Shown here one piece after another: positions 8,413-56,200 of a DNA stretch of 64,000 nt (the stretch's first letter is position 1; every line of letters starts with the position of its first letter). The position numbers and the translations under genes were made by a program. The notes under the pieces are model-generated. The model saw nothing but the letters and a program-made list of their open reading frames with translations. It ran no database searches and had not been told where the DNA came from. The stretch spans positions 64,001 to 128,000 of the forward strand of contig CAVRJY010000001.1 of NCBI GenBank assembly GCA_963721805.1, in the 5' to 3' direction. Source of the stretch: Nitrospirota bacterium (GTDB lineage Bacteria; Nitrospirota; Thermodesulfovibrionia; Thermodesulfovibrionales; JdFR-86).

Positions 8413-8592
8413 AAAGCGCTCCAAATCGCTTGATACTGCGTTGGGCTTCAAAGACTCGCCCTCTATGTACGTCACAGTACACCATCGGGCGGTCTTCTCG
8501 CCCTGCCTTGTCTGAAGCCGATTTGGCCGCGCTTTCGGGGGTTGGTCGCGGCTCCGCCGCTGGACCCCCGCGCCCCCAAGGTCAAAGGCATT
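8413..8592 (-). repeat. Dispersed long-hairpin element, copy 1 (core 8413-8535 plus TTGACC leader)
   Basis: Reverse complement of the AAAGCGC..CCAAATCGGCTTCAGACAAGG..TGTAC-N6-GTACA..GTATCAAGCGATTTGGAGCGCTTT consensus. Confidence 0.92.
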
Positions 8593-8667
8593 ACTGAAAA
8601 ACTTCTTGGAATGCACAGGGCAGTTGCGGTATGATTTGCGCATGACCTTGCGTGGAGAAAGATTATT

Positions 8668-9426
8668 ATGAACGACCCTAACGGAGTATCTGCTCCTATC
8701 ATCCATCGCATAAAGCGACCTCGGGGTTTTACAATCTTGGCTTTCCTTCAAGCATTTTTGGCTGTTGGTGGAATCGGTAACGGTATTTTTCTCGATTCAT
8801 CATATGGTAGCGTCCCCAAACTCTTAGCCCTTGTTTATGGTCTAGCTGCGCTGGCATCTGCGATAGGTCTTTGGACAGTTCGACCTTGGGCATTGCAGTC
8901 CACAATAATTTTGTCCATGGCGACATTAATACGAATATTCAATCTGCAATTTGGAGCGAATGAAAGCCAGAGCATTCCTTTGAGTGTATTTGTTCCATAT
9001 GTATTGGTAGTTGGTTTTTTATTAGTGCTGATGCTTTATTATGTCAAAAAAGAACTTTCGAGAAGCCTAACCAATAGCTTAGTTTCAGAAGGACTTATCC
9101 CTAACCCAAATAGCAAGCAAAGTGTTTCTGTGGTCAGATCAGTTTTATATTCCTGCATATTATTTTTGATCGTCTCGTTTATCAATTTTGTCATAACAAT
9201 AGTTTTCATAAGCAAGGATCTTGTCACAGGTGCCATCTTTAATGCATTATTAAACTTGCTGCCTATTTATCTTCTTGCAAAATATTTTATTGCGCCCTTA
9301 AAGAGCAAGACAATTTATATTGCGTTCTTCATAGGCTCAATCATCGCATCAGTTATTTTAGTGATACCGTATGGTGATTATGTTTGGGATTTTATTTTTG
9401 ATTTACTTAGACACCATTTTAATTAA
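8668..9426 (+). CDS. Hypothetical AT-rich multi-pass membrane protein
   Basis: 252-aa ORF with about 7 hydrophobic segments and SD GGAG; clearly lower GC than its flanks. Confidence 0.75.
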   Translation: MNDPNGVSAPIIHRIKRPRGFTILAFLQAFLAVGGIGNGIFLDSSYGSVPKLLALVYGLAALASAIGLWTVRPWALQSTIILSMATLIRIFNLQFGANESQSIPLSVFVPYVLVVGFLLVLMLYYVKKELSRSLTNSLVSEGLIPNPNSKQSVSVVRSVLYSCILFLIVSFINFVITIVFISKDLVTGAIFNALLNLLPIYLLAKYFIAPLKSKTIYIAFFIGSIIASVILVIPYGDYVWDFIFDLLRHHFN

Positions 9427-9507
9427 TAGTGACGGGACACGATAGTGACCGACGCATAAGAAGTCGCGGCAGCAGCAACGGCCCAAACAGTAACGCTGTT
9501 TACTCCG

Positions 9508-9650
9508 AAATCTTACATTTGGATTCGTCACATGTAAGATTAGCGCCCAAACTTTACATATGAGCTTGTCTTATGTAAGTTTAGACCTCCAATCTTACAT
9601 ATGGGTTCGTCATACGCAGGCCTAGTGTCCAAATCTTATACATGTCAGAC
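9508..9650. repeat. 41-bp-period degenerate palindromic tandem repeat (~3.5 units)
   Basis: TTACAT at 9513, 9554, 9595 and TTATAC at 9636; unit 1 is AATCTTACAT-N13-ATGTAAGATT. Confidence 0.75.
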
Positions 9651-9684
9651 CACGGAGGCCGAGCTGCACCGCTCACTTTTAATC

Positions 9685-9859
9685 AAAGCCATTGACCTTG
9701 TGGGGTGCGGGGGGCTCCTTTATTCTCTCCCCCGAAAGCGCGCCCAAATCGGCTTCAGACAAGGCAGGGCGAGAAGACCGCCCGATGGTGTACTTGGGCG
9801 TACATAGAGGGCGAGTCTTTGAAGCCCCCAACGACGTATCAAGCGATTTGGCGCGCTTT
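9685..9859 (+). repeat. Long-hairpin element, copy 2 (core 9735-9859)
   Basis: Near-identical to copy 3; TTGACC leader at 9692. Confidence 0.92.
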
Positions 9860-9867
9860 AGAGAGGA

Positions 9868-11214
9868 TCAGCGCTTGGCGAGGGGCGGTACTGGCTTGTT
9901 GATCTTGACCGACGAGTAGAATGAAGGCCTGATGATCCTACCCTGTATGAGTTCCTCGATGCGGTGCGCGCTCCATCCCGCCACGCGCGCCATCGCGAAG
10001 ATCGGCGTGAAGAGGTCCACCGGGATGCCCATGCACTCGTAGACGAACCCCGAGTAGAAGTCCACATTGGTGCAGACGATCTTGTTCTTCTTTTCCTTCA
10101 CCACGCTCGGCGCGAGCCGGGCTATCATCCGGTACAGCGCGAACTCCTTCTCGCGGTTTGCGGCGCTCGCGAGCTCCCCGGCGCGCTTCTCTAAAAATAC
10201 CGCCCTGGGGTCCGTGCAGGTATAGACCGCGTGGCCCATGCCGTAGAGCTTCCCGGTGCGGTCCCCGGCCTTCTTGTCCATGATCGAGACGAGGTATGCG
10301 CGCGCCTCGTCCTCGTCCTCCCAGTCCCTGACCTTCTTCTTGATCTCGGTCATCATCCGCACTACCGCCTCGTTCGCCCCTCCGTGCAGGTGGCCCGAAA
10401 GCGAGCCGATCCCGGCGCATATGGCCATGTAGGTGTTGGCCCCCGAGGAGGTGACGCAGCGTGTTGAGAACGTGGAGTTGTTGCCCCCGCCGTGCTCGGC
10501 GTGGAAGATCAGCATCGTGTCGAACATCTCGGCCGTCGCGCGGTCGGGCACCTTGCCGGTGAGCATATAGAGGAAGCTCTCGGCCGTGCTCATGCCTGCC
10601 TCGGGCTCGATGATCTTGCCGCACCGCTCGCCCTGGTCGAGGTTGCGCGTGAGGTAGTTATATGCGATGATCGAGCCGAACTTGGCTATGAGGTCGATGC
10701 ACTGCCGGACGACGTCTTTGAGGTCCGTCGAGTTCGGGTTTTTGTCAAAGAGGTGCATAGCCGAGACTATCGTGTGCAGCGAGCCCATCTGGTCGTCGTG
10801 CTGCGGGCGGCAGTATACGATGCCCTTGGCCTCCTTGGGCAGAGCGCGGCGCTTGCCCAGCTCGCGCGAGAAGCTCTTGAGGTCATCCTTCGTGGGCAGC
10901 TCTCCGGTCAGGAGCAGGTATACCGTCTCCTCGTAGCCGAAACGGGCCTCCTCCTCCTTCGTCCGCACGAGCTCCTCGACGTCGAAACCGCAGTAGTAGA
11001 GCTTGCCGGGGATCGCGCGGATGCTCTCGCTGCCGTCCCCGCCGATCACGCGCTCGTAGCCGATCACCTGGCCCTTGCTCGTGATGCCGACGAACACCCC
11101 CGTGCCGTCATCGTTGCGCAGGCCGAGCTTGATGTTCTTTTCCCTGAGCAGCTTGGCATCGAGCTTGTCGTGCATCAGGGCAAGGTTTTCGACTTTTTTC
11201 AGTACGCTCTCCAT
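9868..11214 (-). CDS. gltA: Citrate (or 2-methylcitrate) synthase
   Basis: HAEHGGGNNST, GHLHGGAN, GMGHAVY..DPR and NVDFYSG catalytic motifs. Confidence 0.9.
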   Translation of the reverse strand: MESVLKKVENLALMHDKLDAKLLREKNIKLGLRNDDGTGVFVGITSKGQVIGYERVIGGDGSESIRAIPGKLYYCGFDVEELVRTKEEEARFGYEETVYLLLTGELPTKDDLKSFSRELGKRRALPKEAKGIVYCRPQHDDQMGSLHTIVSAMHLFDKNPNSTDLKDVVRQCIDLIAKFGSIIAYNYLTRNLDQGERCGKIIEPEAGMSTAESFLYMLTGKVPDRATAEMFDTMLIFHAEHGGGNNSTFSTRCVTSSGANTYMAICAGIGSLSGHLHGGANEAVVRMMTEIKKKVRDWEDEDEARAYLVSIMDKKAGDRTGKLYGMGHAVYTCTDPRAVFLEKRAGELASAANREKEFALYRMIARLAPSVVKEKKNKIVCTNVDFYSGFVYECMGIPVDLFTPIFAMARVAGWSAHRIEELIQGRIIRPSFYSSVKINKPVPPLAKR

Positions 11215-11339: not shown

Positions 11340-11516
11340 AATGCCGTTGACCTTGGGGGGCCCGGGGGGCGTCAGTTGGCTTCCACACCCCCGAAAGCGC
11401 GCCCAAATCGGCTTCAGACAAGGCAGGGCGAGAAGACCGCCCGATGGTGTACTTGGGCGTACATAGAGGGCGAGTCTTTGAAGCCCAACGCAGTATCAAG
11501 CGATTTGGAGCGCTTT
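11340..11516 (+). repeat. Long-hairpin element, copy 3 (core 11394-11516)
   Basis: ATGCCGTTGACC leader and full core, ending 1 bp from the stop codon of the TPR glycosyltransferase. Confidence 0.92.
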
Positions 11517-11517
11517 C

Positions 11518-13347
11518 CTACTGGGGATGAGAGAGTTGAGCCTCTGCCTTCTGCCTAAGTTCTCTGGTCTGGGTAAGTGTCGGGTCTATTGCCAGCGCCG
11601 CGTCGAATTCGCGGATCGCGGCCTCTGTCTGCCCGGTCTCCATATAGCATATCCCCAAGTTGTTGTGCGCCTCGGCCAGCCGCGGGTCAAGGCGTATAGC
11701 CTCCCTAAGCTCGGTGATCGCCTCTGAGGTCAGCCCCCCGGCGTAGAGCGCCGCGGCGAGGTCCGCGTGGCCCTGGGCATACCCCGGCTTCGCGGCCACG
11801 GCCTTGCGGTACATCGCTATGGCCTTGTATGTCTCGCCCTTGGCCTCGTGCGCCCGGCCGAGCTTGTCGTACACCTCCGAGAGGTCGGCGTTGATCCCGA
11901 GCACCGCCTTGAAGTGCTCGACGATCTCATCGTCATTGTCTGTAGCCTGCTCCGGCTGCGCGGCCGCCGGGCCCGTATCGAGCGTGTCGTGCGGCAGGGC
12001 GGATGCGGCCCGGTATTGCTCATCCGCGCGCGCGTTATCCCCGGCGGCACGGTACGCGATGCTCAGGTTGAAGTGAGGCCTTCGTTTCAGGGGCGACTTG
12101 CTGACGGCGTCGGACCAAAGCGAGATCTCGTCGTGCCAGACCGCGTTTCGCTCGTATGCCGCCACGCCGAGCGCGGCAACGAGCGCCGCAGAGACGACCA
12201 TAACGGCCCGCGGCCGGACGAACTCGAACCCGAGCGCGACCACGGCGATTATGATACCGGCCGAGGGCAGGTATGCCCGGTGCTCGAAGATCATGTCATT
12301 AAGCGGAAACACGCTCGACTCGACCGAGAGCGTGACGAAGAACCACCATACCCCGTATGCCGCGACCCGCAGCCCCGGCCTCCGGGTGCGGTATGCCCAT
12401 ACCGATGCGGCCAGCAGGAGTACCAGGAAGGCCGCGGATGCGAGCACCCTCGTATCGAGCAGGCTGCGGTAGACCGGCCAGTCGTAGTCGATGTTCTGGC
12501 CGGCCGGGAGGAAGATGAGCCGCAGGTACTCGGGGACGACCGTGATCTGGGTTATAAGGTAGTCGGCCCTCGTGAGGCCGGAGGCCGCACGGCCGGTAGC
12601 CGCGCTGATCGAGCCCCCGGAGGCCGCGATGGTCCAAAACGGTATGATGAGCATCGTGGCCAGGATCGGCGCAAGCGGCCTGAGCCTCTCGCGCCAGCCG
12701 CCCTCGAAGAATGCCGCCTCATAGAGCACGACCGCCACCGGCAGCGTAAAGGCGATCTCCTTGGTCATCATCGCACAGACCGCGCAGATTAAGGCAAGCG
12801 CGTAGCGCGCCAAACCGCCGCGGAGTCTCCATCCGGCATATGCCACGAGCGAGCCAAGATAGAACGCCGCACATAGCGAGGTGAAGCGCTGCGAGATGTA
12901 CGTCACGGCCTGCGTCTCGATCGGGTGCGCCGCGAAGAGCGCGGCCGCGATCAGGGCCGCGGCGGCGCGATGCGCCGAGAGCGTCGAGCCCCTCATGCGC
13001 GGCGTGGCGAGCATCAGCAGCACGAGCAGGTATACGAGCACCGAGTTGATGAAATGTATCGCGATGTTTACGAGGTGAAACCCGCGAAGCCCGTCCGCGA
13101 GCACATTGGCATAGAGCGTGAGGTACGCGACGTACCGCGTGCGGAGCGTATCGGTCACGTTGGAGTTCGTCATCATGCCGCGGTCGAACTTTGCAGGGTC
13201 CGGCCATAGCGTGAAGGACTTAAACCACGGGTTGCCCGGGATGTAGTCGCGGTCGTCGAGGTGGAACGATGCGTCGAGGGTGTTGGAATAGGCCGCGGCG
13301 CAGATCAGCAGCAGCAAGAGGATGCGGGGCCAGTGGCGGGTACTCAC
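11518..13347 (-). CDS. TMTC-like GT-C glycosyltransferase with C-terminal TPRs
   Basis: FHLDD, FHLVNIAIH, FAAHPIETQAVTYISQR, TKE, EHRAYLPS and RNAVW..SLW motifs, then TPRs. Confidence 0.85.
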   Translation of the reverse strand: MSTRHWPRILLLLLICAAAYSNTLDASFHLDDRDYIPGNPWFKSFTLWPDPAKFDRGMMTNSNVTDTLRTRYVAYLTLYANVLADGLRGFHLVNIAIHFINSVLVYLLVLLMLATPRMRGSTLSAHRAAAALIAAALFAAHPIETQAVTYISQRFTSLCAAFYLGSLVAYAGWRLRGGLARYALALICAVCAMMTKEIAFTLPVAVVLYEAAFFEGGWRERLRPLAPILATMLIIPFWTIAASGGSISAATGRAASGLTRADYLITQITVVPEYLRLIFLPAGQNIDYDWPVYRSLLDTRVLASAAFLVLLLAASVWAYRTRRPGLRVAAYGVWWFFVTLSVESSVFPLNDMIFEHRAYLPSAGIIIAVVALGFEFVRPRAVMVVSAALVAALGVAAYERNAVWHDEISLWSDAVSKSPLKRRPHFNLSIAYRAAGDNARADEQYRAASALPHDTLDTGPAAAQPEQATDNDDEIVEHFKAVLGINADLSEVYDKLGRAHEAKGETYKAIAMYRKAVAAKPGYAQGHADLAAALYAGGLTSEAITELREAIRLDPRLAEAHNNLGICYMETGQTEAAIREFDAALAIDPTLTQTRELRQKAEAQLSHPQ

Positions 13348-14757: not shown

Positions 14758-14788
14758 ATACGAGTATATCACTTTCCCACATGCTGTT

Positions 14789-14853
14789 AAAGCGCACCAA
14801 ATCGCTTGATACGTCGTTAGGCATCGAAGACTCGCCCTCTATGTACGCCCAAG
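14789..14853 (-). repeat. Long-hairpin element, half copy
   Basis: AAAGCGCACCAAATCGCTTGATAC...TATGTACGCCCAAG, truncated at the apical loop. Confidence 0.85.
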
Positions 14854-14870
14854 CATGATTAGAGTTATGC

Positions 14871-14966
14871 GGTGAGCGGGGTTACACTCCGCGAATAGGA
14901 GAAGGTGCCCGTGGCACCTGAGCGGGTCCTCATCCCGCGAATAGAGAAAGGGGCCAGCCGGCCCCC
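14871..14966. repeat. Mosaic of short REP-like modules
   Basis: GAGCGGG..CCGCGAATAG twice, GGTGCCCGTGGCACC and GGGGCCAGCCGGCCCC; the same modules recur near 2326, 5405, 11257, 39973, 53270 and 54350. Confidence 0.7.
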
Positions 14967-16527: not shown

Positions 16528-16563
16528 CATTTGGTCACTCATCACCGCTCTCGCCCATTTTCC

Positions 16564-16905
16564 AAAGCGCTCCAAATCGCTTGATACTGCGTTGGGCATC
16601 GAAGACTCGCCCTCTATGTACGTCACAGTACACCATCGGGGTGCCACGGGCACCTCTCCTGAAGAAAGGGCCAGTCGGCCCCTTGTCTGAAGCCGATTTG
16701 GGCGCGCTTTCGGGGGGCACGGATGAAGGACGCCCCCCGCGCCCCACGTGGTCAAAAGCATGTTCTGATGTCCGCGCTTAGGCATACATACGCATACCGC
16801 GCGCGCGTTTTATTTTAGAGTGTTCGGATATTGGGGGCAAAAGCGAGCCTAATCCGGCGGATTTAAAGGGATTTATGCGATCTCCCGCGTTCGGATGTTC
16901 GGATG
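16564..16905 (-). repeat. Long-hairpin element, copy 4 (core 16564-16710 with internal mini-hairpin cassette) plus partial ATCCGAACA arm
   Basis: The core matches the consensus; 16750-16905 is the reverse complement of the arm seen at 43180-43340 and 60827-60988. Confidence 0.9.
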
Positions 16906-17042: not shown

Positions 17043-17100
17043 GGAACTGCGCCATGGGAACTGGTTCCATGGAACCAGTTCCTAGGAGTTGGTTCCGGTG
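17043..17100. repeat. 14-bp-period palindromic tandem repeat
   Basis: Units start at 17043, 17057, 17071 and 17085; perfect 26-bp palindrome GGAACTGGTTCCATGGAACCAGTTCC at 17057-17082. Confidence 0.7.
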
Positions 17101-18300
17101 TGTAAAGGTTACGCTCTTACCGGACAGTATCAGGCTGGAAAAAGCAGGCGGCAGCCAGCCCTTCCATCGGTTAGAATGTTTCACCACAAAACACAGACCG
17201 AAGGAGGAAGGGCATGACTGCCAAAGAAAAGATATCACAAGGGAGGCTTTCAATGCTTCAGCTGGCCGAGAGGCTCAGGAACGTGTCGGAGGCCTGTCGC
17301 CGCCGGGGGGTGAGCCGCAGCCAGTTTTACGAGTACAAGCGGGCGTTTCAGGAGCAGGGGTTTGCGGGGCTCGCGGACCTTCCGCCGATAGCGCGTAGCT
17401 GTCCCCACAAGACGCCTGAGGAGGCCCGCAAGCGAGTGATCGAGATGAGCCTTGCTCACCCCCGGTGGGGGAAGCAGCGCATCTTCGAGCACCTGCTTCT
17501 GGAGGGCATATTGGTGCGTCCCTCAACTGTGTATCGCATCCAGGTTCGCGAGGGGCTGGAGTCGAAGGCCAAGCGCATCCTCCGGCTTGAGCAGGAGGCT
17601 AACGGCAAGGAGATCGAGCTAACGGAGGAGCAGGTCAAGCTCATCGAGCGGGCCAATCCGTGCTTCAGGGAAAGGCATGTGGAGAGCGCATATCCGGGCT
17701 ATCTGCTCAGCCAGGACACCTTCACGGTGGGCAAGCTCAAGGGCATCGGGACCGTGTATCTGCAGGCCGTGGTGGACACGTACGGCTCTTATGCCTTCGG
17801 CAAGCTGTACACGTCGAAGAGGCCCGAGACGGCGGCCGACGTGCTCTACGACCGCGTGCTGCCGTTTTACGAGGACCATGGCATCAGGGTCCAGCATGTC
17901 CTGACGGACAACGGCTCGGAGTACTGCGGCAAGCTGCTGCGGCATCCGTACGAGCTGTTTCTGGCGCTTCACGACATCGCGCATCGAAGGACGAAGGTGG
18001 CGACACCGAGGACAAACGGATTCGTGGAGCGGTTTAATCGCACCATCCTGGACGAGTTCTTCTCGGAGACGTTCAGGTACCGGTTCTACGCATCGCTCGA
18101 TGAGCTGCAGTATGACCTCGACCGGTGGCTGCACCACTACAACAACGAGCGCCCTCACAAGGGCTATCGCAACATGGGCAGACGGCCAATAGAAACTATC
18201 GAGCTGGGCAAAAAGCTAAGACAGAAAGCTGAGGAGGAGGCCGCCTGATCAGTGCGACCGATGAGATGGAAAACTGTCCGGAGAGCACTGGACTTTTACA
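17101..18300 (+). mobile_element. IS481-family insertion sequence (1200 bp)
   Basis: TGT...ACA ends with imperfect ~28-bp TIRs (TGTAAA..CCGGACAGT); 8-bp direct repeat TTCCGGTG at 17093-17100 and 18301-18308. Confidence 0.92.
17214..18248 (+). CDS. IS481-family DDE transposase
   Basis: N-terminal HTH (NVSEACRRRGVSRSQFY) and rve core QDTF, TDNGSEY, TNGFVERFNRT, YNNERPH. Confidence 0.95.
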   Translation: MTAKEKISQGRLSMLQLAERLRNVSEACRRRGVSRSQFYEYKRAFQEQGFAGLADLPPIARSCPHKTPEEARKRVIEMSLAHPRWGKQRIFEHLLLEGILVRPSTVYRIQVREGLESKAKRILRLEQEANGKEIELTEEQVKLIERANPCFRERHVESAYPGYLLSQDTFTVGKLKGIGTVYLQAVVDTYGSYAFGKLYTSKRPETAADVLYDRVLPFYEDHGIRVQHVLTDNGSEYCGKLLRHPYELFLALHDIAHRRTKVATPRTNGFVERFNRTILDEFFSETFRYRFYASLDELQYDLDRWLHHYNNERPHKGYRNMGRRPIETIELGKKLRQKAEEEAA

Positions 18301-18350: not shown

Positions 18351-19154
18351 TTATTTATCAAAAGGGCTATTGCGGTAATTCACAAGATCCTCGGCGGTCA
18401 TTTCCTTCGGTGGAACAAGACGATAATGTTTTTCAGTCGCTATGCCGATACCATTGCTGCCTTCCTCGAAAGCGAATAGTGCGATCAAGTTGTCCTCCAT
18501 GAATTGCGTCGCAATGGGTCGACATACAAGAGCGGGGAACTTCGCAGCACACATAGCGAAGTCCTGTTCTATCTGCACGATTCCTAGCTGATCCTTTCCA
18601 CCTTTGGCCTGCACAGGGAAGACATATTGAGCCCCGCGCCGATCAACTCCTATATAAAGTTCGTCGGTCTCAATCTGGCCCATTCCTGCAACAGTCGTTC
18701 TCAAATGGCTCTGCAAGGCGTAACAAGTTACGCCGGTAAAGATGTCTATGAGCCTGTTATAGCGCACCTTTGCAAGCAGAGCCTGCTCATCGCTCAAGGC
18801 ATACATCATGATGATTCCTGGAGTGGCGTCCGGTATTTTTGTCTCTGTCAACAATTCATTGGGGTTTATCCGTGGCAACGAGGTAAGCGAGAATTCATAA
18901 CGGGCGGTACCTACTGGCCGTATGACCCATTCCAAACCCTCCGGAGCAAGTTTACGGATGGAATCCGGCAGGGCCGCCCTGTACCGAAAAGTGTAAACAA
19001 TATCGCCAAGATTTTTCGGTAGAACGATACCCAGTTCCTGAGCGGTTCTTACGATCTCTTCTCTTTCGAAAGAGACTTCCGTGGCCATTGCGGTGTAGTG
19101 GCGTTCAAATATCTTTTCGATAAGCTGAGTGTATCTATTTTTACCCTTAGCCAT
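18351..19154 (-). CDS. Putative type II restriction endonuclease (PD-(D/E)xK-like)
   Basis: QIETDELYIG...PVQAKG nuclease-like motif; overlaps the MTase stop; AT-rich. Specificity not identifiable by eye. Confidence 0.7.
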   Translation of the reverse strand: MAKGKNRYTQLIEKIFERHYTAMATEVSFEREEIVRTAQELGIVLPKNLGDIVYTFRYRAALPDSIRKLAPEGLEWVIRPVGTARYEFSLTSLPRINPNELLTETKIPDATPGIIMMYALSDEQALLAKVRYNRLIDIFTGVTCYALQSHLRTTVAGMGQIETDELYIGVDRRGAQYVFPVQAKGGKDQLGIVQIEQDFAMCAAKFPALVCRPIATQFMEDNLIALFAFEEGSNGIGIATEKHYRLVPPKEMTAEDLVNYRNSPFDK

Positions 19155-20493
19155 AGGTTCCTCCGGTTCGTTTTCCATTTCGTCGGCCAGTCAGCTTACT
19201 CGGTCCTGGCCATCTTAAAATAACGACTTCCTCGCGCATTTGCTTCTTTGTAGATGTGGCAATTCGTGTGCGAAACAAGTCGATACCGATAAGTTCATAA
19301 CCCTGAGAAACCGCTATGTCAGCCAATAACTGGCCCGTTCGTATCATCACCTGAAGATATGATGCCTGATCCCCTACGACATATCCGAGGTGTGCGCCGG
19401 GCTTCAAGAAAGGGCGGAGTTCGTCAAGGTGACGCGCCATGCCGCCGAAATACAGTTTTGTAACTTTTCCGTATAATTTTTCAAAGCCAGATGTTTTCCC
19501 AAGTTCGATTCTTTTATTTTCTATTTCTTTAGCGATAGCCTGTATATCCTTATTTTTTTCGACCCATTTATCATCATCGTCTCCTTTGTAAACATTCCGG
19601 GTATTGGAGCGGAGAAGTCCTTTTTTGAGTGCTTGAAGTTCAGCCTTGTTATTGATGAATCCAAGCAGAACGGATTCTAGTCTTGTGGTGCGAGTATAGT
19701 CTTTCTCGTTCGGATATGGTGGGGATGTGAAAACGGCATCGATGGAATTAGGTTGCAGTACCTCACCAAAGTGTCTGGAATCGGCATGGAAGACGGTTGC
19801 CGGAACCTGTGCCCTCTTCACAGAACGAAGGTCATCGGCCATGATCCGGACTTCATCAAGCCATGATTCTATAACAGGAGCGTCTAGTTTCTTCTTGGGA
19901 TGAACCCCGACTTCGGGACCGAAGTGAAGGTTGCTTATAGAGAAGACCAGTGCTTTTGCGAGAGCAAGGGACGCATGTCTGTTATATCTTTCGTCTTGGA
20001 GTTTGTGCATTTGCTCCAAAAGAATAATGGTCTTGTGCAGTGGGTGAGGACTGATGGAGTCCTTTAAAAGTAGCTTTATGGTCTCTTGAGATAGAGACCG
20101 CAATTTTCTTCTGCCCCAAGAAGCTATAAGCCTGTTGGCCTCTTCTGCTATCGTTTCCGCATATGCGATAAGATCATCAGGATTAATTCCCCAGTCCAGC
20201 TTAACACCACTAGCAAAGAAGGGCATATGATTGGCTTCGATGCCTATACTAGGTATTCCGTTCAACTTGGCTTCGATAATTGTTGTCCCTGTTCCACAGA
20301 AAGGATCAAGAATTGTGCTTTTATGATTGAGATTAAATTTATTTATGTATTCACGAACAAGATGGGGTGGAAAGGAAAGGACAAAGCGATACCAGTCATG
20401 AAATGCTCGGTCTGTCACTTGAAGTTTATTTGCAGTTCCGTTTGTTCTTTTCGGAGCGATTTCCGTTATTGTTGTAACTGGATTAGTTTGCAC
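19147..20493 (-). CDS. Amino-DNA methyltransferase (SPPY; motif I before motif IV; likely m4C)
   Basis: LDPFCGTGTT followed by FTSPPY. Confidence 0.88.
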   Translation of the reverse strand: MQTNPVTTITEIAPKRTNGTANKLQVTDRAFHDWYRFVLSFPPHLVREYINKFNLNHKSTILDPFCGTGTTIIEAKLNGIPSIGIEANHMPFFASGVKLDWGINPDDLIAYAETIAEEANRLIASWGRRKLRSLSQETIKLLLKDSISPHPLHKTIILLEQMHKLQDERYNRHASLALAKALVFSISNLHFGPEVGVHPKKKLDAPVIESWLDEVRIMADDLRSVKRAQVPATVFHADSRHFGEVLQPNSIDAVFTSPPYPNEKDYTRTTRLESVLLGFINNKAELQALKKGLLRSNTRNVYKGDDDDKWVEKNKDIQAIAKEIENKRIELGKTSGFEKLYGKVTKLYFGGMARHLDELRPFLKPGAHLGYVVGDQASYLQVMIRTGQLLADIAVSQGYELIGIDLFRTRIATSTKKQMREEVVILRWPGPSKLTGRRNGKRTGGTYG

Positions 20494-20585
20494 TTCACTA
20501 ATGCTATCAAATCGATGGTAGGTATTTCAATGATGAACGGCGCTTTGCTCATAGCGGATACAAATCTAATCAGCTCCATCCCACG

Positions 20586-20632
20586 AAAGCGCGCGAAATC
20601 GTATCAGACAAGGAAGGGGCCAGTCGGCCCCC
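20586..20632 (+). repeat. Long-hairpin element, 5' fragment capped by a mini-hairpin
   Basis: AAAGCGCGCGAAATCGTATCAGACAAGG followed by GGGGCCAGTCGGCCCC. Confidence 0.7.
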
Positions 20633-20661
20633 TATGGTATATTAAGTATTGGTGTAAAAGG

Positions 20662-21240
20662 ATGCGAAACCTTGCTTATAAGCTGGCGGCGATCTGCGCG
20701 TTTTTGAGCGTATTGCTGTTTTGCGCGTCGTTTGCGTATGCCGCCAATATTACAGGCCCCGAGGTGCGACTCGACCAGCAGGGCATATACGTCGCGGCCG
20801 GCGTGAGGCTCGAGCCCCAGGAGCAGCAGGACATCCGCGAGGGCATCCAGAAGGACATCGACATATTCATCGACCTCTTCCGCGTCTGGCGCTTCTGGCC
20901 GGACGAGTTCGTGCTCGGCACGAAGTATACCCAGACGCTGCGCTGCGACCCTGTGAAGAAAGAATATGTCGCGACCTCCCTTACCGGCACGCGCGAGCGC
21001 GTGCACCGCTTCGAGGACTGCGACGCCCTGATGAACTGGGCCCTGAACATCCCGGAGATCATGCTCACGCACGTGGGCGAGCTCGAGCCGGGGGAGTATT
21101 TCGTCAAGGTCACGGCCGAGTCGCGCCTGCGGCGCCTGCCTCCGTTTATAGACCAGCTGTTTTTCTTCGTCCCGCAGAAGGAATACCACATAGAGGGCCG
21201 CTCGCAACCGTTCCCGATAGGCGGGGGTGCCGCGAAATGA
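20662..21240 (+). CDS. DUF4390-like periplasmic protein
   Basis: Signal peptide and FRVWRFWPDE; typical position upstream of ntrY; ATGA overlap with ntrY. Confidence 0.7.
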   Translation: MRNLAYKLAAICAFLSVLLFCASFAYAANITGPEVRLDQQGIYVAAGVRLEPQEQQDIREGIQKDIDIFIDLFRVWRFWPDEFVLGTKYTQTLRCDPVKKEYVATSLTGTRERVHRFEDCDALMNWALNIPEIMLTHVGELEPGEYFVKVTAESRLRRLPPFIDQLFFFVPQKEYHIEGRSQPFPIGGGAAK

Positions 21241-43491: not shown

Positions 43492-43508
43492 CACCCTTTG
43501 GAGCGCTT

Positions 43509-49680: not shown

Positions 49681-50433
49681 ATGGGAAAGATCATAGCCAT
49701 AGCAAACCAGAAGGGCGGCGTGGGCAAGACCACGACCGCGATAAACCTCGCGGCCTCCCTCGCGCTTGGCGGGCAGGAGATACTGATCGTCGATAGCGAC
49801 CCGCAGGGCAACGCATCGAGCGGGTTGGGCGTCATCGACGGCTCGCGCGGGCTCTATGACGTATACGCCCGGGGACTTACGATCGAAGATGCTATGGTCC
49901 GGACCGAGGTCGACGGCCTGTGGCTCGTGCCCTCGACCGTGGACCTGATCGCCTCGGAGCTGGAGCTCGTGGACCGCCCTGACAGGGAACTTATACTCAA
50001 AGACCGGCTGGCCGCTATCAGAGACAGGTTCCGGTTCATATTCATCGACTGCCCGCCGTCGCTCGGGCTCCTGACGCTGAACGCCCTGGTCGCGGCCGAC
50101 TCGCTGATGGTCCCGGTGCAGTGCGAATACTACGCGCTGGAGGGCCTGGGGCGGCTTACGCGCACTATATCGCTCGTCCGCGACTCTTACAACCCAGCGC
50201 TCGAACTCGAGGGCATCGTGCGCACGATGTACGACCCGCGCAATACGCTTTCGAGGCAGGTCGAGGAGGAGCTGAGAACACACTTCGGGGCGAAGCTCTA
50301 CAACACCGCTATACCGAGGAACGTGACGCTGGCCGAGGCCCCGAGCCACGGCAAGCCCGCGATCCTCTACGACGCCCGCGCCCGTGGGGCGCAGGCATAC
50401 CTGTCGCTTGCAAAGGAGATGCTTGGTGGCTAA
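49681..50433 (+). CDS. parA: Chromosome partitioning ATPase ParA/Soj
   Basis: ANQKGGVGKTTT, DPQGNAS, IDCPPSLG, QCEYYALEG and LAEAPSHG. Confidence 0.97.
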   Translation: MGKIIAIANQKGGVGKTTTAINLAASLALGGQEILIVDSDPQGNASSGLGVIDGSRGLYDVYARGLTIEDAMVRTEVDGLWLVPSTVDLIASELELVDRPDRELILKDRLAAIRDRFRFIFIDCPPSLGLLTLNALVAADSLMVPVQCEYYALEGLGRLTRTISLVRDSYNPALELEGIVRTMYDPRNTLSRQVEEELRTHFGAKLYNTAIPRNVTLAEAPSHGKPAILYDARARGAQAYLSLAKEMLGG

Positions 50434-51274
50434 GGCAGCGCTCGGACGGGGGCTTGACGCCCTGATCCCCGAAAAAAAGGGGCGCGAGATAGTAGAGATC
50501 GAGATCACTCGCATTGCGGCAGGCCGCGAGCAGCCCCGCAAGAGCTTCAACGACGAGCGGCTGAAGGACCTCTCGGAATCGATTCGGGAGCGCGGGGTGC
50601 TGCAGCCCGTGCTCGTCAGGCGCGAGCCTGACGGCTCGTTCAGCCTGATAGCGGGCGAGCGCCGGACGCGCGCCGCGATGATGGCCGGTCTCAAGAAGAT
50701 CCCGGCGATCATACGCGAGGACAACCCGGCCGACATACTGGAGATCGCGCTTATCGAGAACATCCAGCGCGAGGACCTGAACCCTATCGAGACCGCGTCC
50801 GCCTTCGACCGGCTTATCAAGGAGTTCGGGCTCACGCAGGAGGCCGCCGCATCGCGCGTCGGCAAGGAGCGCGCCACGGTGGCGAACTACCTCCGCCTGC
50901 TTTCTCTGCCCGAGGAGATCAAGGCGCTGGTGGCCGACGGCGCGCTCACGATGGGACACGCCCGCGCGATTTTAGCAATCGAGGGCAGGGCAAGCCAGAT
51001 CGAGGCTGCGCGCGTTATCATCAAAAAGGGCCTGAGCGTCCGCGAGGCCGAGCGCATGGCAAAGAATCCTCCGGTGGCCGGGGCGGCCCCCCGGGCGAAG
51101 AAGGCCGCGCCCACCGACCCGCACGCGGCCGAGGTCGAGCAGAAGCTCATACGCGCCCTAGGCACGAAGGTCAGACTCAAGCACAATACCAGGACGAAGC
51201 GCGGGGCTATCGAGATAGAATATTACTCCTTGGAGGAACTCGACAGGCTCCTCGATATAATGCTCGGATTGTAG
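50426..51274 (+). CDS. parB: Chromosome partitioning protein ParB/Spo0J
   Basis: ALGRGLDALI, QPR, AGERR, IENIQREDLN and HTH; GTG start overlaps parA. Confidence 0.97.
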   Translation: MAKAALGRGLDALIPEKKGREIVEIEITRIAAGREQPRKSFNDERLKDLSESIRERGVLQPVLVRREPDGSFSLIAGERRTRAAMMAGLKKIPAIIREDNPADILEIALIENIQREDLNPIETASAFDRLIKEFGLTQEAAASRVGKERATVANYLRLLSLPEEIKALVADGALTMGHARAILAIEGRASQIEAARVIIKKGLSVREAERMAKNPPVAGAAPRAKKAAPTDPHAAEVEQKLIRALGTKVRLKHNTRTKRGAIEIEYYSLEELDRLLDIMLGL

Positions 51275-51428: not shown

Positions 51429-52019
51429 ATGGATTCGTTCGAGGCATTGCTCGAGGAGTCCGTGGCGGCTCACGGCCACCTCTGTCCGGGGCAGATACTG
51501 GGCGTGCGGATGTCGATGCTGGGCCTCATCCGCATTGGCATAACCGACCCGCGCGGGGCACAGCGCAAAGACCTCATCGTTTATATCGAGACCGACCGCT
51601 GCGCGGCCGACGCTGTGCAGTCCGTGACCGGATGCCGCCTCGGCAAGCGCACATTGAAGTTCATGGACTACGGCAAGATGGCCGCGACGTTCGTCAACCT
51701 GAATACCGGCAAGGCCGTGCGCGTCCTCTGCCGCGAGGACGCCCGCGAGAAGGCCAAAGAGCTGTTTCCCTCCATGGAAGATAAATATAAAGCCCAGGCC
51801 GAGGCCTACAAGGTCATGCCCGACTCGGAGCTATTCGATATCATGCCGGTGCGCGTTAAGCTCCGCGACTGCGACATGCCCGGCCGTCCGCTGAGCCGCG
51901 TGGTATGCATTAAATGCGGCGAGCACGTGCAGGACTCGCGCGAGGTGCGCGGCGCGTATGGCGAGGCGCTATGCCGCGTGTGCGCGGGCGATGCGTATTA
52001 CGAGGTGCAGGATGTGTGA
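51429..52019 (+). CDS. FmdE-family protein with C-terminal zinc finger
   Basis: HGHLCPG, ETDRCAADAVQ, GCRLGKRTL and CIKCGE..CRVC. Confidence 0.88.
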   Translation: MDSFEALLEESVAAHGHLCPGQILGVRMSMLGLIRIGITDPRGAQRKDLIVYIETDRCAADAVQSVTGCRLGKRTLKFMDYGKMAATFVNLNTGKAVRVLCREDAREKAKELFPSMEDKYKAQAEAYKVMPDSELFDIMPVRVKLRDCDMPGRPLSRVVCIKCGEHVQDSREVRGAYGEALCRVCAGDAYYEVQDV

Positions 52020-53052
52020 TACAGATAAGGGCGTCCAGCGCACCGTCGCTGTGGGCGATGCGGTCGGGATGGTGCTCGGCCATGACATCACCGAGATCGT
52101 ACCCGGCGGGCGCAAGGGCCCGGCGTTCAAGAAGGGCCACGTTATTGCCGAGTCGGACGTCGAGAAGCTCAAGAGCCTCGGTAAGGAACGGATATACGTC
52201 CTCTCTATCCCGCCTGAGATGATGCACGAGGACGAGGCCGCCGCCGCGCTCGCGGCCGCGCTTTGCGGCGAGGGCGTAAGGCTCAGCGGCGAGCCCTCCG
52301 AGGGCAAGATTAACCTGATCGCGGCCCGCGACGGGCTATTGAAGGTGAATGTTCAGGCCCTTTATGAGTTCAACATGCAGGGCGAGGTGATGTGTGCCAC
52401 GCTCCATACTAATACCATAGTCAAAGAGGGCCGCACGGTCGCCGGGACGAGGGCGATCCCGCTCGTCGTCGAGCGCGCGCTCGTCGGACGCGCCGTGGCC
52501 GCGGCACAGGGCGGCGTGGTAAGCGTCATCCCGATACGCTCGCCGAAGGCCGGGCTCGTTGTAACCGGCACCGAGGTCTTCGAGGGCCGGATCAAGGACG
52601 CCTTCGCCCCGGTTATCACCCAGAAGGTAGCTGAGTTTCAGGGCTCGATGGTCGGGATCAGGTTCGCGCCCGACGACGCCGAGAGGATAGCCGCCGAGAT
52701 AAGGGGCCTTATAGCTGCCGGGGCGGACCTGATAATCACGACCGGCGGGATGTCCGTGGACCCGGACGACGTGACGCGCCATGCCGTGAGGCTCGCCGGG
52801 GCGACCGATATGACATATGGCTCGCCGGTGCTGCCGGGCGCGATGCTGCTCGTGGCATACATAGGCGAGATACCCGTGATCGGCATACCGGCCTGCGGGA
52901 TGTACAGCAAGCGGACGGTGCTGGACCTCGTCCTGCCCCGCGTACTTTCAGGCGAACATATCACTCGCGCCGAGATAGCGGCCATGGGACATGGCGGTTT
53001 ATGCCTCCATTGCACCGACTGTAAGTACCCTATTTGCCCATTCGGGAAGTAA
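52012..53052 (+). CDS. Molybdopterin-binding (MoeA/CinA-like) protein
   Basis: LGHDITEI, TGTEV, TGGMSVDPDDVT, PVLPG and GGLCLHC..C.YPICPFGK. Confidence 0.85.
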   Translation: MCDTDKGVQRTVAVGDAVGMVLGHDITEIVPGGRKGPAFKKGHVIAESDVEKLKSLGKERIYVLSIPPEMMHEDEAAAALAAALCGEGVRLSGEPSEGKINLIAARDGLLKVNVQALYEFNMQGEVMCATLHTNTIVKEGRTVAGTRAIPLVVERALVGRAVAAAQGGVVSVIPIRSPKAGLVVTGTEVFEGRIKDAFAPVITQKVAEFQGSMVGIRFAPDDAERIAAEIRGLIAAGADLIITTGGMSVDPDDVTRHAVRLAGATDMTYGSPVLPGAMLLVAYIGEIPVIGIPACGMYSKRTVLDLVLPRVLSGEHITRAEIAAMGHGGLCLHCTDCKYPICPFGK

Positions 53053-53060
53053 CCTCTTTC

Positions 53061-53250
53061 AAAGCGCTCCAAATCGCTTGATACGTCGTCACCATTTGAA
53101 AATCGCCCTCCAGAGTACATCTCAGTACACTTGCGGGCTATTTTCAAACGATTCCTAGTCTGAAGACGATTTGGGCGCGCTTTCGGGGGTGGGGAAAAAG
53201 GATGGGGCCAGTCGGCCCGCCCCCCGCGCCCCCAAGGTCAACGGCTTAAT
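53061..53250 (-). repeat. Long-hairpin element, copy 7 (core 53061-53183)
   Basis: Consensus termini with a variant inner stem TTTGAAAAT/ATTTTCAAA; GGTCAA leader near 53236. Confidence 0.9.
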
Positions 53251-53432
53251 TAGAAATGAGCGCTAAGGCGCGAATAGTGAGAGGGGTCCGCGACCCCGCG
53301 AATATGAGCCTGGGGGCGCTGCCCCCCTGCCCGTGGCATCCCGCTTAATGAATATTTTACTAATAGTGTAAACTATTGCCCTATTCAGCCATATGGAGTG
53401 CTCGCAAAAATATTGACTCACTGGGGGAACGG

Positions 53433-54266
53433 ATGGGACAGGGAATTCGCAGGCCGGGGATCATAACCGCCATAATCTTATTGATTTCGGTATTTTGTTT
53501 ATATGCGCCCGCCTTTGCCGAGTCCGAGCCGTCTATCTACATAGCGGACGTGGACGTCTCAGCTAAGACCATCGCCATCTACGGCACTCACTTCGCACCG
53601 AACGGCTCAAATCACCCCGCCTTTCCCAAGGCGTTCCTCGGCGGCGAGCAGCTTACTATTGATTCGTATGATGACGGCCTGATAAACGCCACGCTGCCCG
53701 ATGACATCACGGACGGGAGCTATCTGCTTGAGGTCCTAAGGACAAGGGACAAGCATGGCACGTTTATGGTGACCATCGGCGCGACCGGACTGCAGGGGCC
53801 AAAGGGCGACAAGGGCGACACGGGGGATACAGGGGCTAAGGGCGACAAGGGTGATAAGGGTGACACCGGAGCTACCGGCGCAACAGGCGCAACAGGCGCA
53901 ACAGGCGCGACAGGTGCCACCGGGACTAACGCAACGTCCATAACCGTGGGCCGCTTTGTGACCGCTACCAGTGGGAATGTTACCTGGGGAATGACGAGCG
54001 CGGATGCAACGTGCACTTGTCCGTCGGGCTACACATTGTACGGGCAGACAATAAATAATTGGTATGCTGACGATGGCGTGAGCGTAACATCCACAACTGT
54101 ATCCATAGGCAGTTACTTATGGTATACGTCGGGTGCACAGCATGCCGCGGTGCCAAATACCGCGACGTGCACTATCCAACGTGGCGCGGACGTGGCTTTC
54201 TCTGGCGTTGCCAATATCGAGTGCATGTGCTTCTGCATGGGAGGCCCAACAATTGAGTATCAATAG
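53433..54266 (+). CDS. Secreted protein: IPT-like N-domain, collagen G-X-Y repeats and Cys-containing C-domain
   Basis: Signal peptide (PAFA/E); [16 protein letters not shown]..(GAT)n; paralogous to the next gene. Confidence 0.8.
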
Positions 54267-54318
54267 CCTGGACTGCCCCATCTGATCAGCCAAAGCTTAA
54301 CACGCAACCCAGCATAGA

Positions 54319-54344
54319 GGGGGGCCGATTGGCCCCCTTTTTTT
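54319..54344 (+). terminator. Intrinsic terminator (mini-hairpin family)
   Basis: GGGGGCC-GATT-GGCCCCC followed by T7. Confidence 0.7.
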
Positions 54345-54527
54345 GCCAGCGAATAACCCCGCGAAGAAGTGAGCGAAGCGAATAGATGAGCGCGTAGCGC
54401 GAACATTTGCCGGGGGGCGCTGCCCCCGGCACCCCCTAGCCGGACGGGTTAAAAAGGTGTAAGCTTCGACTATACGGAAGGTCGAGACTCATCTAACCAA
54501 CAAATTCCGACTGAAAAGGGGGAACAG

Positions 54528-55154
54528 ATGGGACATGGTATTCGCAAAACGGGGATCATAACCGCGGCCTTAGTATTGTTCTCGGTGTTCTGCTTTTGCA
54601 TGCCCGCCTTTGCCGAGAAGGCCCCTGCGATAGCCGTTGTGGCTGTAGATTTAACCAACCACAGCATGCTCATCAACGGCGCGCGGTTCGAGCCGGGTTC
54701 AGATCACATTGCTTTCCCCAAGGTCTTTCTCGGTGGCGAGAAGCTGACTATTGTCTCACATTCAGACGGCCTGATAAACGCCACGCTGCCTGACGACATC
54801 ACTAATGGGAGCTATCTGCTTAAGGTCTTCAGGACTTCGGACAAGTCTGCCGCCTTCGAGGTGACTATCGGCACCGCAAGCTTCGGCACCGACACGAACC
54901 AAGCGGCCACCGGTGCCGGGGCAGAGTGTACGGTGGGTGAGATCCTGCTGACTGCCGGCGCTGTGGCAAACGGGATGCCGGCCAGCGGGCAGATCCTTCT
55001 TATCAATGATTACGATGTCCTCTTTTCCCTGTTGGGCACAACATACGGCGGAGATGGCGATACCACATTCGCCCTGCCCGACATGCGGGCTATAGCGCCC
55101 AATCACATGACGTACTCGATTTGCATTTTTGGGGTCTATCCCAGTCAGAATTGA
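54528..55154 (+). CDS. Secreted protein: same IPT-like N-domain plus phage tail-collar domain
   Basis: N-terminal ~115 aa homologous to the 53433 gene; VGEI..GQIL.I..LFSLLGTTYGGDG.TTFALPDMR tail-collar motif. Confidence 0.82.
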   Translation: MGHGIRKTGIITAALVLFSVFCFCMPAFAEKAPAIAVVAVDLTNHSMLINGARFEPGSDHIAFPKVFLGGEKLTIVSHSDGLINATLPDDITNGSYLLKVFRTSDKSAAFEVTIGTASFGTDTNQAATGAGAECTVGEILLTAGAVANGMPASGQILLINDYDVLFSLLGTTYGGDGDTTFALPDMRAIAPNHMTYSICIFGVYPSQN

Positions 55155-55201
55155 ACCAGTGGCGCCATGGGCCTCTTTTCTAGTGAAAGGTGCCTGTGGC
55201 G

Positions 55202-55894
55202 CTATTTTAACAGCGGAGTTTCCTTTTCGAAGACATGCTTGAAGATCTCAAACAGCTCCTTGCCTTCCTGAGTATTTAAGTACAAGGCAGTCGAGATGCT
55301 GATCAGGCTCGATAGCGCGACCCCGCGCCAATCGAACCGGTTGAGCCTCTCGGCCGCATCTGACAGGTATGACAGCCTCTCGTCGATTACCGACAGCGCA
55401 TCCGCCGAGGGCCCGAATCTCTCTGCGACTAGCGACCGGAACTCTTCCATGGAGAGTTTCATCTGCTGCTTTTCCGCGGCCGAGAACTGCCGGGGCTCTG
55501 GATCGCCGATCAACAGATGGCCCGCTGGCTGAAGGCTGCCGCCGATCTGGCTCCAGAGGTCGGGCTCCGATAAATCGCTTATGTATGGCAGCGCGTAATC
55601 CGTAAGCCATTTCCTGAAATAACCGTAGATGATCTTGATCGGCCTGGTACCTTGAGTATAGCTCGATTCGGTCTCGGGGTTACGCGCGGATGGCGACCGG
55701 TTGAACCTGCAGTCGAAGCCATCGGGATTGTCAGGCAGGTTCCTCGTCTCGAAGGTAAGCTCAGTGCCCGCGACCCTGATGATGAACACGCTGTCGAGGT
55801 TCGCGTGCTGCACTTCCTCCCCGATGAAGACACTGGGATCGAGGCCATATTCTTTAATTATATCGATGAAGCCGTTTTTGTATTTCTTGAGCAT
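55202..55894 (-). CDS. Hypothetical protein
   Basis: 230-aa ORF with SD GAAGG; no recognisable motif. Confidence 0.65.
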   Translation of the reverse strand: MLKKYKNGFIDIIKEYGLDPSVFIGEEVQHANLDSVFIIRVAGTELTFETRNLPDNPDGFDCRFNRSPSARNPETESSYTQGTRPIKIIYGYFRKWLTDYALPYISDLSEPDLWSQIGGSLQPAGHLLIGDPEPRQFSAAEKQQMKLSMEEFRSLVAERFGPSADALSVIDERLSYLSDAAERLNRFDWRGVALSSLISISTALYLNTQEGKELFEIFKHVFEKETPLLK

Positions 55895-55996
55895 AATCAG
55901 CCTTCATCTTGTCCATATGGCTGCTTTATCTCATAGATGCGCCCCATGGCCTAAATATATCACATAATATAGGGGACCGCTCCCCCGCTTACATTA

Positions 55997-56200
55997 ATCA
56001 ATGCCTTTGACCACGGGGGTGCGGGGGGCTGTCAGTTGTCGTGCCCCCCGAAAGCGCGCCCAAATCGTCTTCAGACAAGGGGGCCGGTTGGCCCCTGTCT
56101 TTTAGGAGAAGTGCCCGTGGCACCCCGATGGTGTACTGTGACGTACATAGAGGGCGAGTCTTTGATGCCCAACGACGTATCAAGCGATTTGGCGCGCTTT
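55997..56200 (+). repeat. Long-hairpin element, copy 8 (core 56051-56200 with the same internal cassette as copy 4)
   Basis: ATGCCTTTGACC leader; GGGGCCGGTTGGCCCC..GTGCCCGTGGCAC replaces the 5' inner stem. Confidence 0.92.

Follow-up and report, generated by a model that had tools for sequence, protein, structure and literature searches.

Inward-facing copies of a structured intergenic repeat flank small low-GC cassettes across a Nitrospirota-like genome

Parts of one account of Neisseria genomes (PMC3898611) describe abundant short intergenic repeats, the dRS3/RS arrays and the Correia elements. These repeats have been proposed to favour recombination with incoming DNA and to indicate where genes are inserted or deleted, and mobile elements target them too. 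The same parts describe minimal mobile elements, whole-gene cassettes that often encode restriction-modification (R-M) systems and lie between conserved genes; small variable segments in general are taken up in a portion of PMC2884548. Here we report on a hairpin repeat in a 64-kb stretch of DNA, the window (C1:64001-128000 of a host genome labelled G000; positions given without a contig name are those of the window), and on its copies throughout that genome (2.78 Mb, 9 contigs, ~60% GC). The host is Nitrospirota-like, its Rho grouping with those of metagenome-assembled genomes (MAGs) of Thermodesulfovibrionales/Nitrospirota (best identity 83%). Pairs of oppositely oriented copies, the arms, bracket small low-GC cassettes, and the repeat arrays and minimal mobile elements of Neisseria, as far as these portions of the literature cover them, appear to be the closest described analogue. 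The likeness lies in the intergenic repeats, in the cassettes between conserved genes and in the targeting by mobile elements. The unit in Neisseria, however, is the 20-bp dRS3, whereas here it is a 135-nt hairpin plus a leader. Moreover, two inverted copies here follow a strict orientation rule in a Nitrospirota-like host, and neither a phage integrase nor a DNA uptake sequence is linked to them. The best single account, which we hold tentatively, is that inward-facing copies mark or create docking sites, where recombination that involves the arms lets cassettes in or exchanges them.

The repeat is an imperfect palindrome of ~135 nt whose copies align end to end. In the host genome nhmmer returned 233 matches to it, of which 186-187 are full length depending on the cut-off. 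Alignment columns have a mean identity of 78% and 37 of them are invariant. The long imperfect hairpin shows conserved unpaired motifs, and when 40 copies are aligned, 12 of 30 consensus pairs show compensatory changes. The copy at 11382-11520 folds to -85 kcal/mol (z -3.05); the consensus fold energy, -18.9 on the element strand versus -14.2 on the opposite strand, is not decisive for the choice of strand. Two subfamilies, A and B, are set apart by coordinated stem changes, and as we read the alignment GCCCAAC is confined to A-type copies, B-type copies having CCGTGAC instead. The core terminates at its 3' end with GCGCTTT, often followed by GAARAAGG. On the 5' side of the core lies a leader that carries the near-invariant motif GCCGTTGACC, then a G-run/C-run hairpin whose loop is variable. 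In most copies TTGAC[CT] stands no more than about 50 nt from the core, and 163 of 185 full copies have it somewhere in the 162 nt searched; a stricter search places the 12-nt GCCGTTGACC motif in 151 of the 185. The 5' boundary is sharp, as conservation stops 8-10 nt upstream of GCCGTTGACC. The leader was also considered as a promoter; this was rejected, since no sigma-70-like site takes in its TTGACC. Rfam gave no match at gathering score in the window (chance-level E values of 0.9-9 around 60300-61250), and the core repeat is an uncatalogued structured family.

In several respects this family resembles repetitive extragenic palindromes (REP), bacterial interspersed mosaic elements (BIME) and REP doublets forming hairpins (REPIN). 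These too are palindromic intergenic repeats found at gene ends, which form mosaic alternating clusters, are hot spots for insertion sequences (IS) and keep their hairpin by compensatory change; the 233 copies, the 12 compensatory pairs, head-to-head A/B doublets and accessory modules described here all agree with a REP/BIME family. The repeat is 4-5 times longer than a REP, however, no single-copy REP-associated tyrosine transposase (RAYT) gene flanked by the repeat was found, and the Y1 transposase genes are located solely in six IS200-like elements. The labels 'REPIN' and 'integron' suggested by a first-pass annotation of the window are not retained, since the defining features of neither are present. 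To our knowledge no REP or BIME has been described as bracketing foreign cassettes, and none of the papers listed in our literature search reports one.

Statistics of adjacent pairs were obtained for the 206 better copies. Neighbours in the (-)(+) arrangement, in which the leaders face each other (66 pairs), are separated by a median gap of 1697 nt and 47 of them lie within 3 kb, versus 9576 nt and five for the 64 (+)(-) pairs. The 80 adjacent pairs closer than 3 kb thus comprise 47 (-)(+), 5 (+)(-), 17 (--) and 11 (++) pairs. The GC content of the DNA between close pairs ranges from 0.36 to 0.64 and is mostly 0.41-0.52, versus 0.60 for the genome. Altogether, 51 intervals of 300-6000 nt between (-)(+) arms account for 105 kb, about 4% of the genome; most of them have 36-52% GC, and a few are native-like, such as one with a znuABC/fur operon. 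The two arms of one bracket often belong to different subfamilies. In addition, six head-to-head pairs stand 54-135 nt apart and are empty between, one of them with its leader motifs 8 nt apart.

The orientation of single copies follows the same rule. In 181 of 187 copies a gene with native codon usage is the 3'-side neighbour, and in 101 of 186 the open reading frame (ORF) on the leader (5') side is atypical, versus 345 of 2691 gene calls genome-wide. Around the 81 low-GC islands of 1-4 kb, 83 arms have their 3' end outward and 2 are reversed; correctly oriented copies are present on both sides of 31 islands, on one side of 21 and on neither side of 29. A convergent ORF stops within 120 nt of the 3' end in 152 of 202 copies in the host genome. 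The median distance from the 3' end is 11-12 nt to a facing stop and 32-49 nt to a facing start. Since 29 of 98 bracket arms face the start of a gene and not a stop, and their 3' ends point outward all the same, the orientation rule is more than a stop-codon habit.

Enrichment was analysed by counting low-GC DNA of at least 600 nt in the gaps between confident native genes. Such cargo is found in 36 of 1621 gaps without an element, in 19 of 91 gaps with one element and in 30 of 49 gaps with several. The first-pass annotation had warned that regions between convergent genes might simply be neutral insertion sites, and had proposed a genome-wide comparison with convergent gaps that lack hairpins. 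In convergent gaps, cargo is present in 5 of 173 without elements versus 17 of 49 with elements (6/7, 7/33 and 4/9), so it is not equally frequent in the hairpin-free ones. Because cargo fills 2% of element-free gaps versus 21-61% of gaps with elements, the warning does not hold: element-bearing gaps are enriched 10- to 28-fold irrespective of gene orientation. A comparison of the 108 ORFs of the 51 intervals with Pfam revealed many toxin-antitoxin genes, namely MNT/HepT (three times), Gp49-HTH (twice), HicA/HicB, ParE/Phd, PemK, MazE and DUF4160/DUF2442. Other cargo includes a methyltransferase (MTase)-Mrr fusion, Abi_C, HEPN, KAP NTPase, PLD, a Ser/Thr kinase, HNH, GNATs, three kinds of transposase and many ORFs without a Pfam match. 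Of 89 non-IS cargo ORFs, 21 had a PADLOC match (E<=1e-5), and about a dozen of these look convincingly like defence genes; 4 of 6 added window proteins matched as well. The cargo is foreign-looking and rich in toxin-antitoxin, R-M and other defence genes, with orphans and insertion sequences besides. Once insertion sequences and accessory modules are set aside, no stretch of 250 nt or more from any of the 51 cassettes recurs elsewhere in the genome.

A serious rival to the docking-site reading assigns the hairpins no causal role. A MITE-like repeat (miniature inverted-repeat transposable element, MITE) that inserts, or persists, right at gene ends, and foreign DNA, would accumulate independently in the few permissive gaps, and the bracket would be a by-product of geometry and selection. 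The 152 of 202 host copies with a convergent stop close to their 3' end fit this account, as do the 79 solo copies in the host, the insertion sequences that gather at the same places, the copies that abut stop codons in other phyla as well, and the occurrence of the family elsewhere as a plain solo MITE with the terminal inverted repeats (TIRs) GAACCTRTCTCAAAAT and mostly TA flanks; the same is true of the fact that no enzyme, duplication or repeated cassette was found. We nevertheless consider it rather unlikely. Low-GC cargo is rich in A+T targets, yet copies almost never lie inside it or face it, as seen from the 83 outward versus 2 reversed arms and from an atypical 3'-side neighbour in just 6 of 187 copies, and the 29 arms at gene starts point outward too. 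Furthermore, 108 of 187 full copies stand in (-)(+) pairs within 6 kb, far above what independent placement would give when about 8% of gaps hold an element, and the 10- to 28-fold enrichment is seen whatever the gene orientation.

Copies in the window were placed with a covariance model built from 40 copies (R1, filters off) plus repeat searches, which gave nine strong copies and three weak ones. The first-pass annotation had reported the pattern core(-)..cargo..core(+), with the leaders inward, four times; R1 bears out all four brackets, two of which have one degenerate arm (the right arm of bracket 2 and the left arm of bracket 3). The left arm of bracket 1 is a full A-type core at 8409-8547 (minus strand, R1 151.6 bits), whose 3' end is separated from the dnaN stop by 45 nt and lies just beyond the dnaN terminator hairpin, and whose leader (GGTCAAAGGCAT on the plus strand) extends to about 8592, towards the cargo. 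This cargo is the AT-rich orphan gene described earlier, a low-GC ORF of 252 aa (8668-9426, plus; GC3 0.34) that has no Pfam match and is preceded by a promoter-like site of its own at 8606-8635. A 41-bp array had also been claimed in this bracket; about 3.5 loose copies of ~41 nt can be seen by eye after the ORF (9440-9660), but Tandem Repeats Finder calls none at score 60. The right arm, a full A-type core at 9723-9863 (plus, 145.3 bits) with a leader from about 9680, has its 3' end 8 nt away from the citrate synthase stop (gene at 9868-11214, minus).

In bracket 2, the left arm is an A-type core with an internal insert of ~25 nt (16560-16717, minus, 75.5 bits), which sits downstream of rho and the rho terminator. 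As annotated before, the cargo consists of an IS481-like element (17095-18300, plus), inserted beside a GGAACYRGTTCC array at 17057-17082, and of two low-GC genes that encode a type II restriction endonuclease (REase; 18351-19178, minus; PADLOC REase_II, E 3e-115) and an MTase (19147-20493, minus; PADLOC MTase_II, E 3e-37). Its degenerate right arm (20574-20718, plus, 23 bits, E 8e-4) lies just upstream of the start of a histidine kinase gene (20721). Bracket 3 has its degenerate left arm at 39949-40081 (minus, 39.1 bits, E 6e-8) and a B-type right arm at 43357-43495 (plus, 135.2 bits), and contains the expected MmeI-like enzyme, an R-M protein of type IIG (40117-42867, minus) with five MmeI Pfam domains and a PADLOC match to REase_MTase_IIG of 1230 bits (E 0). 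A copy of module X, an accessory segment described below, lies between this cargo and the right-arm leader (42959-43341, plus). Tandem Repeats Finder detects an 18-nt tandem duplication (TTTGGAGCGCTTTCACCC, two copies) at 43479-43514, which covers the final 12 nt of the repeat together with the SufBD-like gene's stop codon; the end of the gene appears to have been rebuilt at the repeat junction.

The left arm of bracket 4 (53057-53195, minus, 126.1 bits) ends 3 nt from the stop of a MoCF-domain gene (51958-53052), and the right arm, an A-type core with an internal insert (56047-56204, plus, 72.7 bits), ends about 20 nt short of a kinase gene stop (gene at 56222-57544, minus). Between them lie a collagen-repeat ORF (53376-54266, plus), a tail-collar-domain ORF (54528-55154, plus) and a hypothetical ORF (55202-55894, minus). 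The first two are paralogous at their 5' ends, in line with their initial description: their 5' parts are about 77% identical, upstream region included, after which one continues with GXY collagen-like repeats and the other with a phage tail-collar domain. The MTase-Mrr fusion gene (24968-26635, minus) is a one-armed case and has, as previously stated, a single flanking copy, a B-type one at 26713-26867 (plus, 83.7 bits) that faces the gene with its leader side and, at its 3' end, meets the stop codon of a gene for an FtsX-like permease (26877-28133, minus); R1 detected no left arm for it in the window. Two solo copies are located between the citrate synthase start and a TPR gene stop (11382-11520, plus, 148.1 bits; 3' end 1 nt from that stop) and between bioW and an ArsR-family gene (61025-61163, plus, 139 bits), the latter with module X upstream (60619-61007) and situated beyond the 8413-56200 range of the first-pass annotation. 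A partial degenerate copy lies by the pyruvate kinase gene (14785-14932, minus, 18.2 bits, E 0.012; 72% over 83 nt).

The leader side of the elements also collects accessory modules and insertion sequences. Module X is a non-coding segment of ~400 nt that adjoins the leader and has about 13 full and about 25 partial copies in the genome, which are 72-86% identical and have no Rfam match. It was considered as a gene and rejected, since it is open on both strands in most of the 13 copies and shows no consistent frame. Arrays of the 12-nt palindrome GGAACYRGTTCC form 21 clusters, 14 of which are found 290-590 nt from an element on its leader side. Right beside these arrays the IS481-like element (TIR TGTAAAGG) inserts, and its 10 near-identical copies are all within about 630 nt of an element. 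An IS30-like element (326-aa HTH_38 protein, about 1.07 kb, at least 6 copies) enters the core at a fixed point and splits it into model positions 4-48 and 24-138 (C1 387210-388442, 649222-650453 and 759535-760766). Finally, A+T-rich DNA on the leader side harbours six identical IS200-like elements of 602 bp, of which four are inside brackets; these elements contain all six identical copies of PF01797 (Y1 transposase) in the genome. The IS200-like element was considered as the mobiliser of the cassettes and rejected, because its end hairpins CCCCGTGGC..GCCACGGGG and its insertion places, which vary within A+T-rich cargo, are unrelated to the repeat.

Of 150 other genomes of the order, 14 contain the core according to the covariance model; they belong to four families (at most 21 candidates scored per genome). 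Exact-pattern scans found no element in genome contigs (two patterns) or in metagenome contigs, and BLAST with a 181-nt query returned nothing in 30 relatives; relatives of the element were found solely by the covariance model and a looser gapped pattern. In two genomes, G067 and G002, the copies are classical MITEs with the 16-nt TIR GAACCTRTCTCAAAAT and mostly TA flanks, and are without the GCCGTTGACC leader, which was not found in one to three copies each from nine further genomes either. The host itself contains about five such TIR-type copies with GAACCTRTCTCAAAAT ends (C1 633942, 898694 and ~176000; C2 75458 and 542603) beside about 220 leader-type copies. With the gapped pattern and the model, the core was also found in Clostridia, Desulfovibrionaceae and other MAGs (at least 34 loci), where it abuts gene stops too; among the 34 loci listed, two form (-)(+) pairs, and the DNA between these is non-coding and repeat-rich. 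In two Clostridia MAG loci (L252, 1982-3147, and L253, 1983-2808), back-to-back cores stand against convergent gene stops, with further partial core copies and repeat-rich non-coding DNA between them.

Positions of the elements are not shared between these genomes above expectation: 4 of 28 MITE-adjacent genes from G067 and G002 have a host homologue with an element less than 400 nt away, which is about the background rate. At the rho locus, in 9 of 80 related loci, the window neighbours are not kept, except partly in L071. Citrate synthase is present in only one of five element-bearing genomes (58% identity), and 31 metagenome citrate synthase loci (63-75% identity) have neither an element nor neighbours in common with the window. 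Among the genomes examined, the host lineage alone has the form with the leader and brackets with cargo in such numbers. None of the papers listed in our literature searches links this repeat, or a MITE, to Nitrospirota, which is weak evidence for its undescribed status.

We propose that the hairpins derive from a widespread structured intergenic repeat of the MITE/REP/BIME style and that this derivative, with its leader, is specific to the lineage. Each copy lies with its 3' end flush with a native gene, and the DNA on the leader side is a hot spot that gathers small foreign cassettes and insertion sequences. Because of this hot spot, two head-to-head copies would make a docking site, and about 50 such sites are occupied by low-GC cassettes of 0.6-6 kb. 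The repeat, its conserved fold, the orientation rule, the enrichment of cargo and the gathering of insertion sequences are observed, and the part of the arms in insertion is what we infer: most likely, cassettes would be inserted or swapped between the arms through recombination that uses them. The arms may serve as portable homology of ~200 bp, common with the DNA of kin donors, as has been proposed for Neisseria; alternatively, exchange may take place at the sharply bounded, invariant GCCGTTGACC end of the leader. A bolder version, which we regard as quite unlikely, is a dispersed gene-capture system with about 60 standard sockets by housekeeping genes and 12-nt motif ends, in which small defence, toxin-antitoxin and orphan cassettes would be plugged in and exchanged by a putative recombination activity, that is, a genome-wide integron evolved from a MITE. 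Of the first-pass suggestion that the hairpins are import ends, the strong, oriented, genome-wide association has stood, while neither a duplication nor a repeated cassette nor a linked recombinase was found.

Several observations weigh against a docking function. Seventy-nine of the 187 full copies are solo, and there are about 6 empty doublets versus about 51 occupied sites, most of the doublets consisting of an A-type copy and a leaderless variant. The geometry is partly trivial, because the 3' end abuts a native gene and any other DNA in the gap must therefore be on the leader side. The evidence on brackets and cargo comes from one genome and is a single-strain view, in which genes were called 'native' or 'atypical' by a crude, self-made codon-usage model. 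No target duplication of 8 nt or more flanks the leader-core unit above the shuffled control (151 units; the exceptions are one 16-nt and one 10-nt repeat at the exact ends), and the outer flanks of 54 brackets show no repeat of at least 8 nt above the control either; this test is informative for 8 nt or more, and duplications of 2-4 nt are below its reach. There is no match to the DDE_3 transposase in the host genome, and an IS630-type parent within it was rejected on this basis. Judged by coordinates, none of the seven tyrosine recombinase genes lies at a bracket, and no Y1 transposase is tied to the repeat, the only ones being those of the unrelated IS200-like element. Finally, no inverted partner is found within about 7 kb on the 5' side of the MITE copies in G067 (20 anchors, inspected with 5.7-7 kb on that side) or in G002 (17 anchors, some cut by contig ends), and the GC content there is ordinary in both; a single extra copy found in G067 has the same orientation.

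One 1.7-kb unit of G067 (C17:17500-19900, locus positions 365-2080) has MITE TIRs and TA flanks. It carries an ORF of 332 aa with a signal-peptide-like start and no Pfam/NCBIfam match, and it contains no recognisable transposase; the unit may be a mobile insertion cassette that belongs to the ancestral type of the repeat. The repeat family can thus bracket a passenger, and the question arises whether the host brackets as a whole are non-autonomous composite transposons, moved through their two outward 3' ends by a transposase supplied in trans, the doublets being the cargo-less form. The inverted arms with outward 3' ends, the presence of cargo-less doublets, the true TIRs and mostly TA flanks of the ancestral family, and the G067 unit itself would all suit such transposons, and inverted ends with a passenger are also the layout of mobile insertion cassettes. 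Nonetheless, this explanation is unlikely. No cassette occurs twice in the genome and no unit was found at a second site, the outer flanks of the 54 brackets tested carry no duplication of at least 8 nt, a DDE_3 transposase is absent from the host genome, and the two arms of a bracket often differ in subfamily. In contrast to mobile insertion cassettes, moreover, the arms are whole 200-nt elements and the cassettes are single-copy. Whereas the related copies of G067 and G002 have the features of MITEs, host-type copies show no TIRs and no detected duplication, and their ends are not inverted repeats of each other (5' ..AATCAWWGCCGTTGACC versus 3' GCGCTTTGAARAAGG).

Integron attC sites and the pdif modules of Acinetobacter offer another comparison, as in both cases small cassettes rich in toxin-antitoxin and defence genes are bounded by structured or recombinase-type sites, and pdif modules, like the brackets here, are bounded by oppositely oriented ones. 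By analogy, a dedicated site-specific recombinase might read the hairpin or the leader motif and insert circular cassettes, which would make this a dispersed integron-like or dif-module-like system. The hairpin is of attC-like size and has conserved unpaired motifs, the 12-nt leader motif is invariant at the cargo boundary, the doublet with inverted motifs 8 nt apart resembles a recombinase core site, and the cassette content is like that of chromosomal integrons. All the same, we consider such a system very unlikely. The sites are inverted and the brackets are dispersed over all large contigs, in contrast to a co-oriented array next to an integrase-attI platform, and copies are conserved in sequence and not merely in structure. 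No R''/R' box consensus (RYYYAAC / GTTRRRY) was found, and boxes of this type are not conserved between the subfamilies. When a site-specific recombinase inserts a circle, the resulting repeats are direct, whereas the arms here are inverted. Nor is there a dif-like site of 28 bp, such as the XerC/XerD sites that stand in inverted orientation at the ends of Xer-dependent modules, although no search aimed at one was made. Of the seven tyrosine recombinase genes (Phage_integrase matches), all are away from the elements by their coordinates, with no Phage_integrase match at the brackets, and five lie in or beside large low-GC islands; two genes (C1 637283 and C2 585118) may encode Xer-like recombinases.

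Two further features of the window deserve mention. The low-GC pair of ATPase genes at 32965-36520, which has no PADLOC match, consists of a gene for an AAA_16/STAND-like protein of 801 aa with TPR repeats (tandem repeats of 96 nt at 33413-33816) and one for an ATPase_2 protein of 389 aa. The degenerate remnants of the repeat that had been reported next to it were not recovered: because R1 gives no match at E<=10 near 32890-32957 or 36669, the pair is without detectable arms, and 32930-32964 is a terminator-like GC hairpin only. Moreover, the presence of dnaA and dnaN (5898-8360) and of parA/parB (49681-51274) probably places the window near the replication origin; four foreign cassettes are nevertheless found in it.

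Much of what distinguishes one bacterial strain from another lies in small variable segments, whose entry without the signature of a mobile element is mostly unexplained. In the genome analysed here, 51 such segments (about 105 kb of 2.8 Mb) have one common, strictly oriented boundary element. If the arms are inactive, the family would illustrate neatly how foreign DNA and a repeat that seeks gene ends come to share the same permissive gaps. If, however, the arms act in insertion, they would offer a new chromosome-wide way to acquire toxin-antitoxin and defence genes, as well as a set of natural, standardised landing pads.

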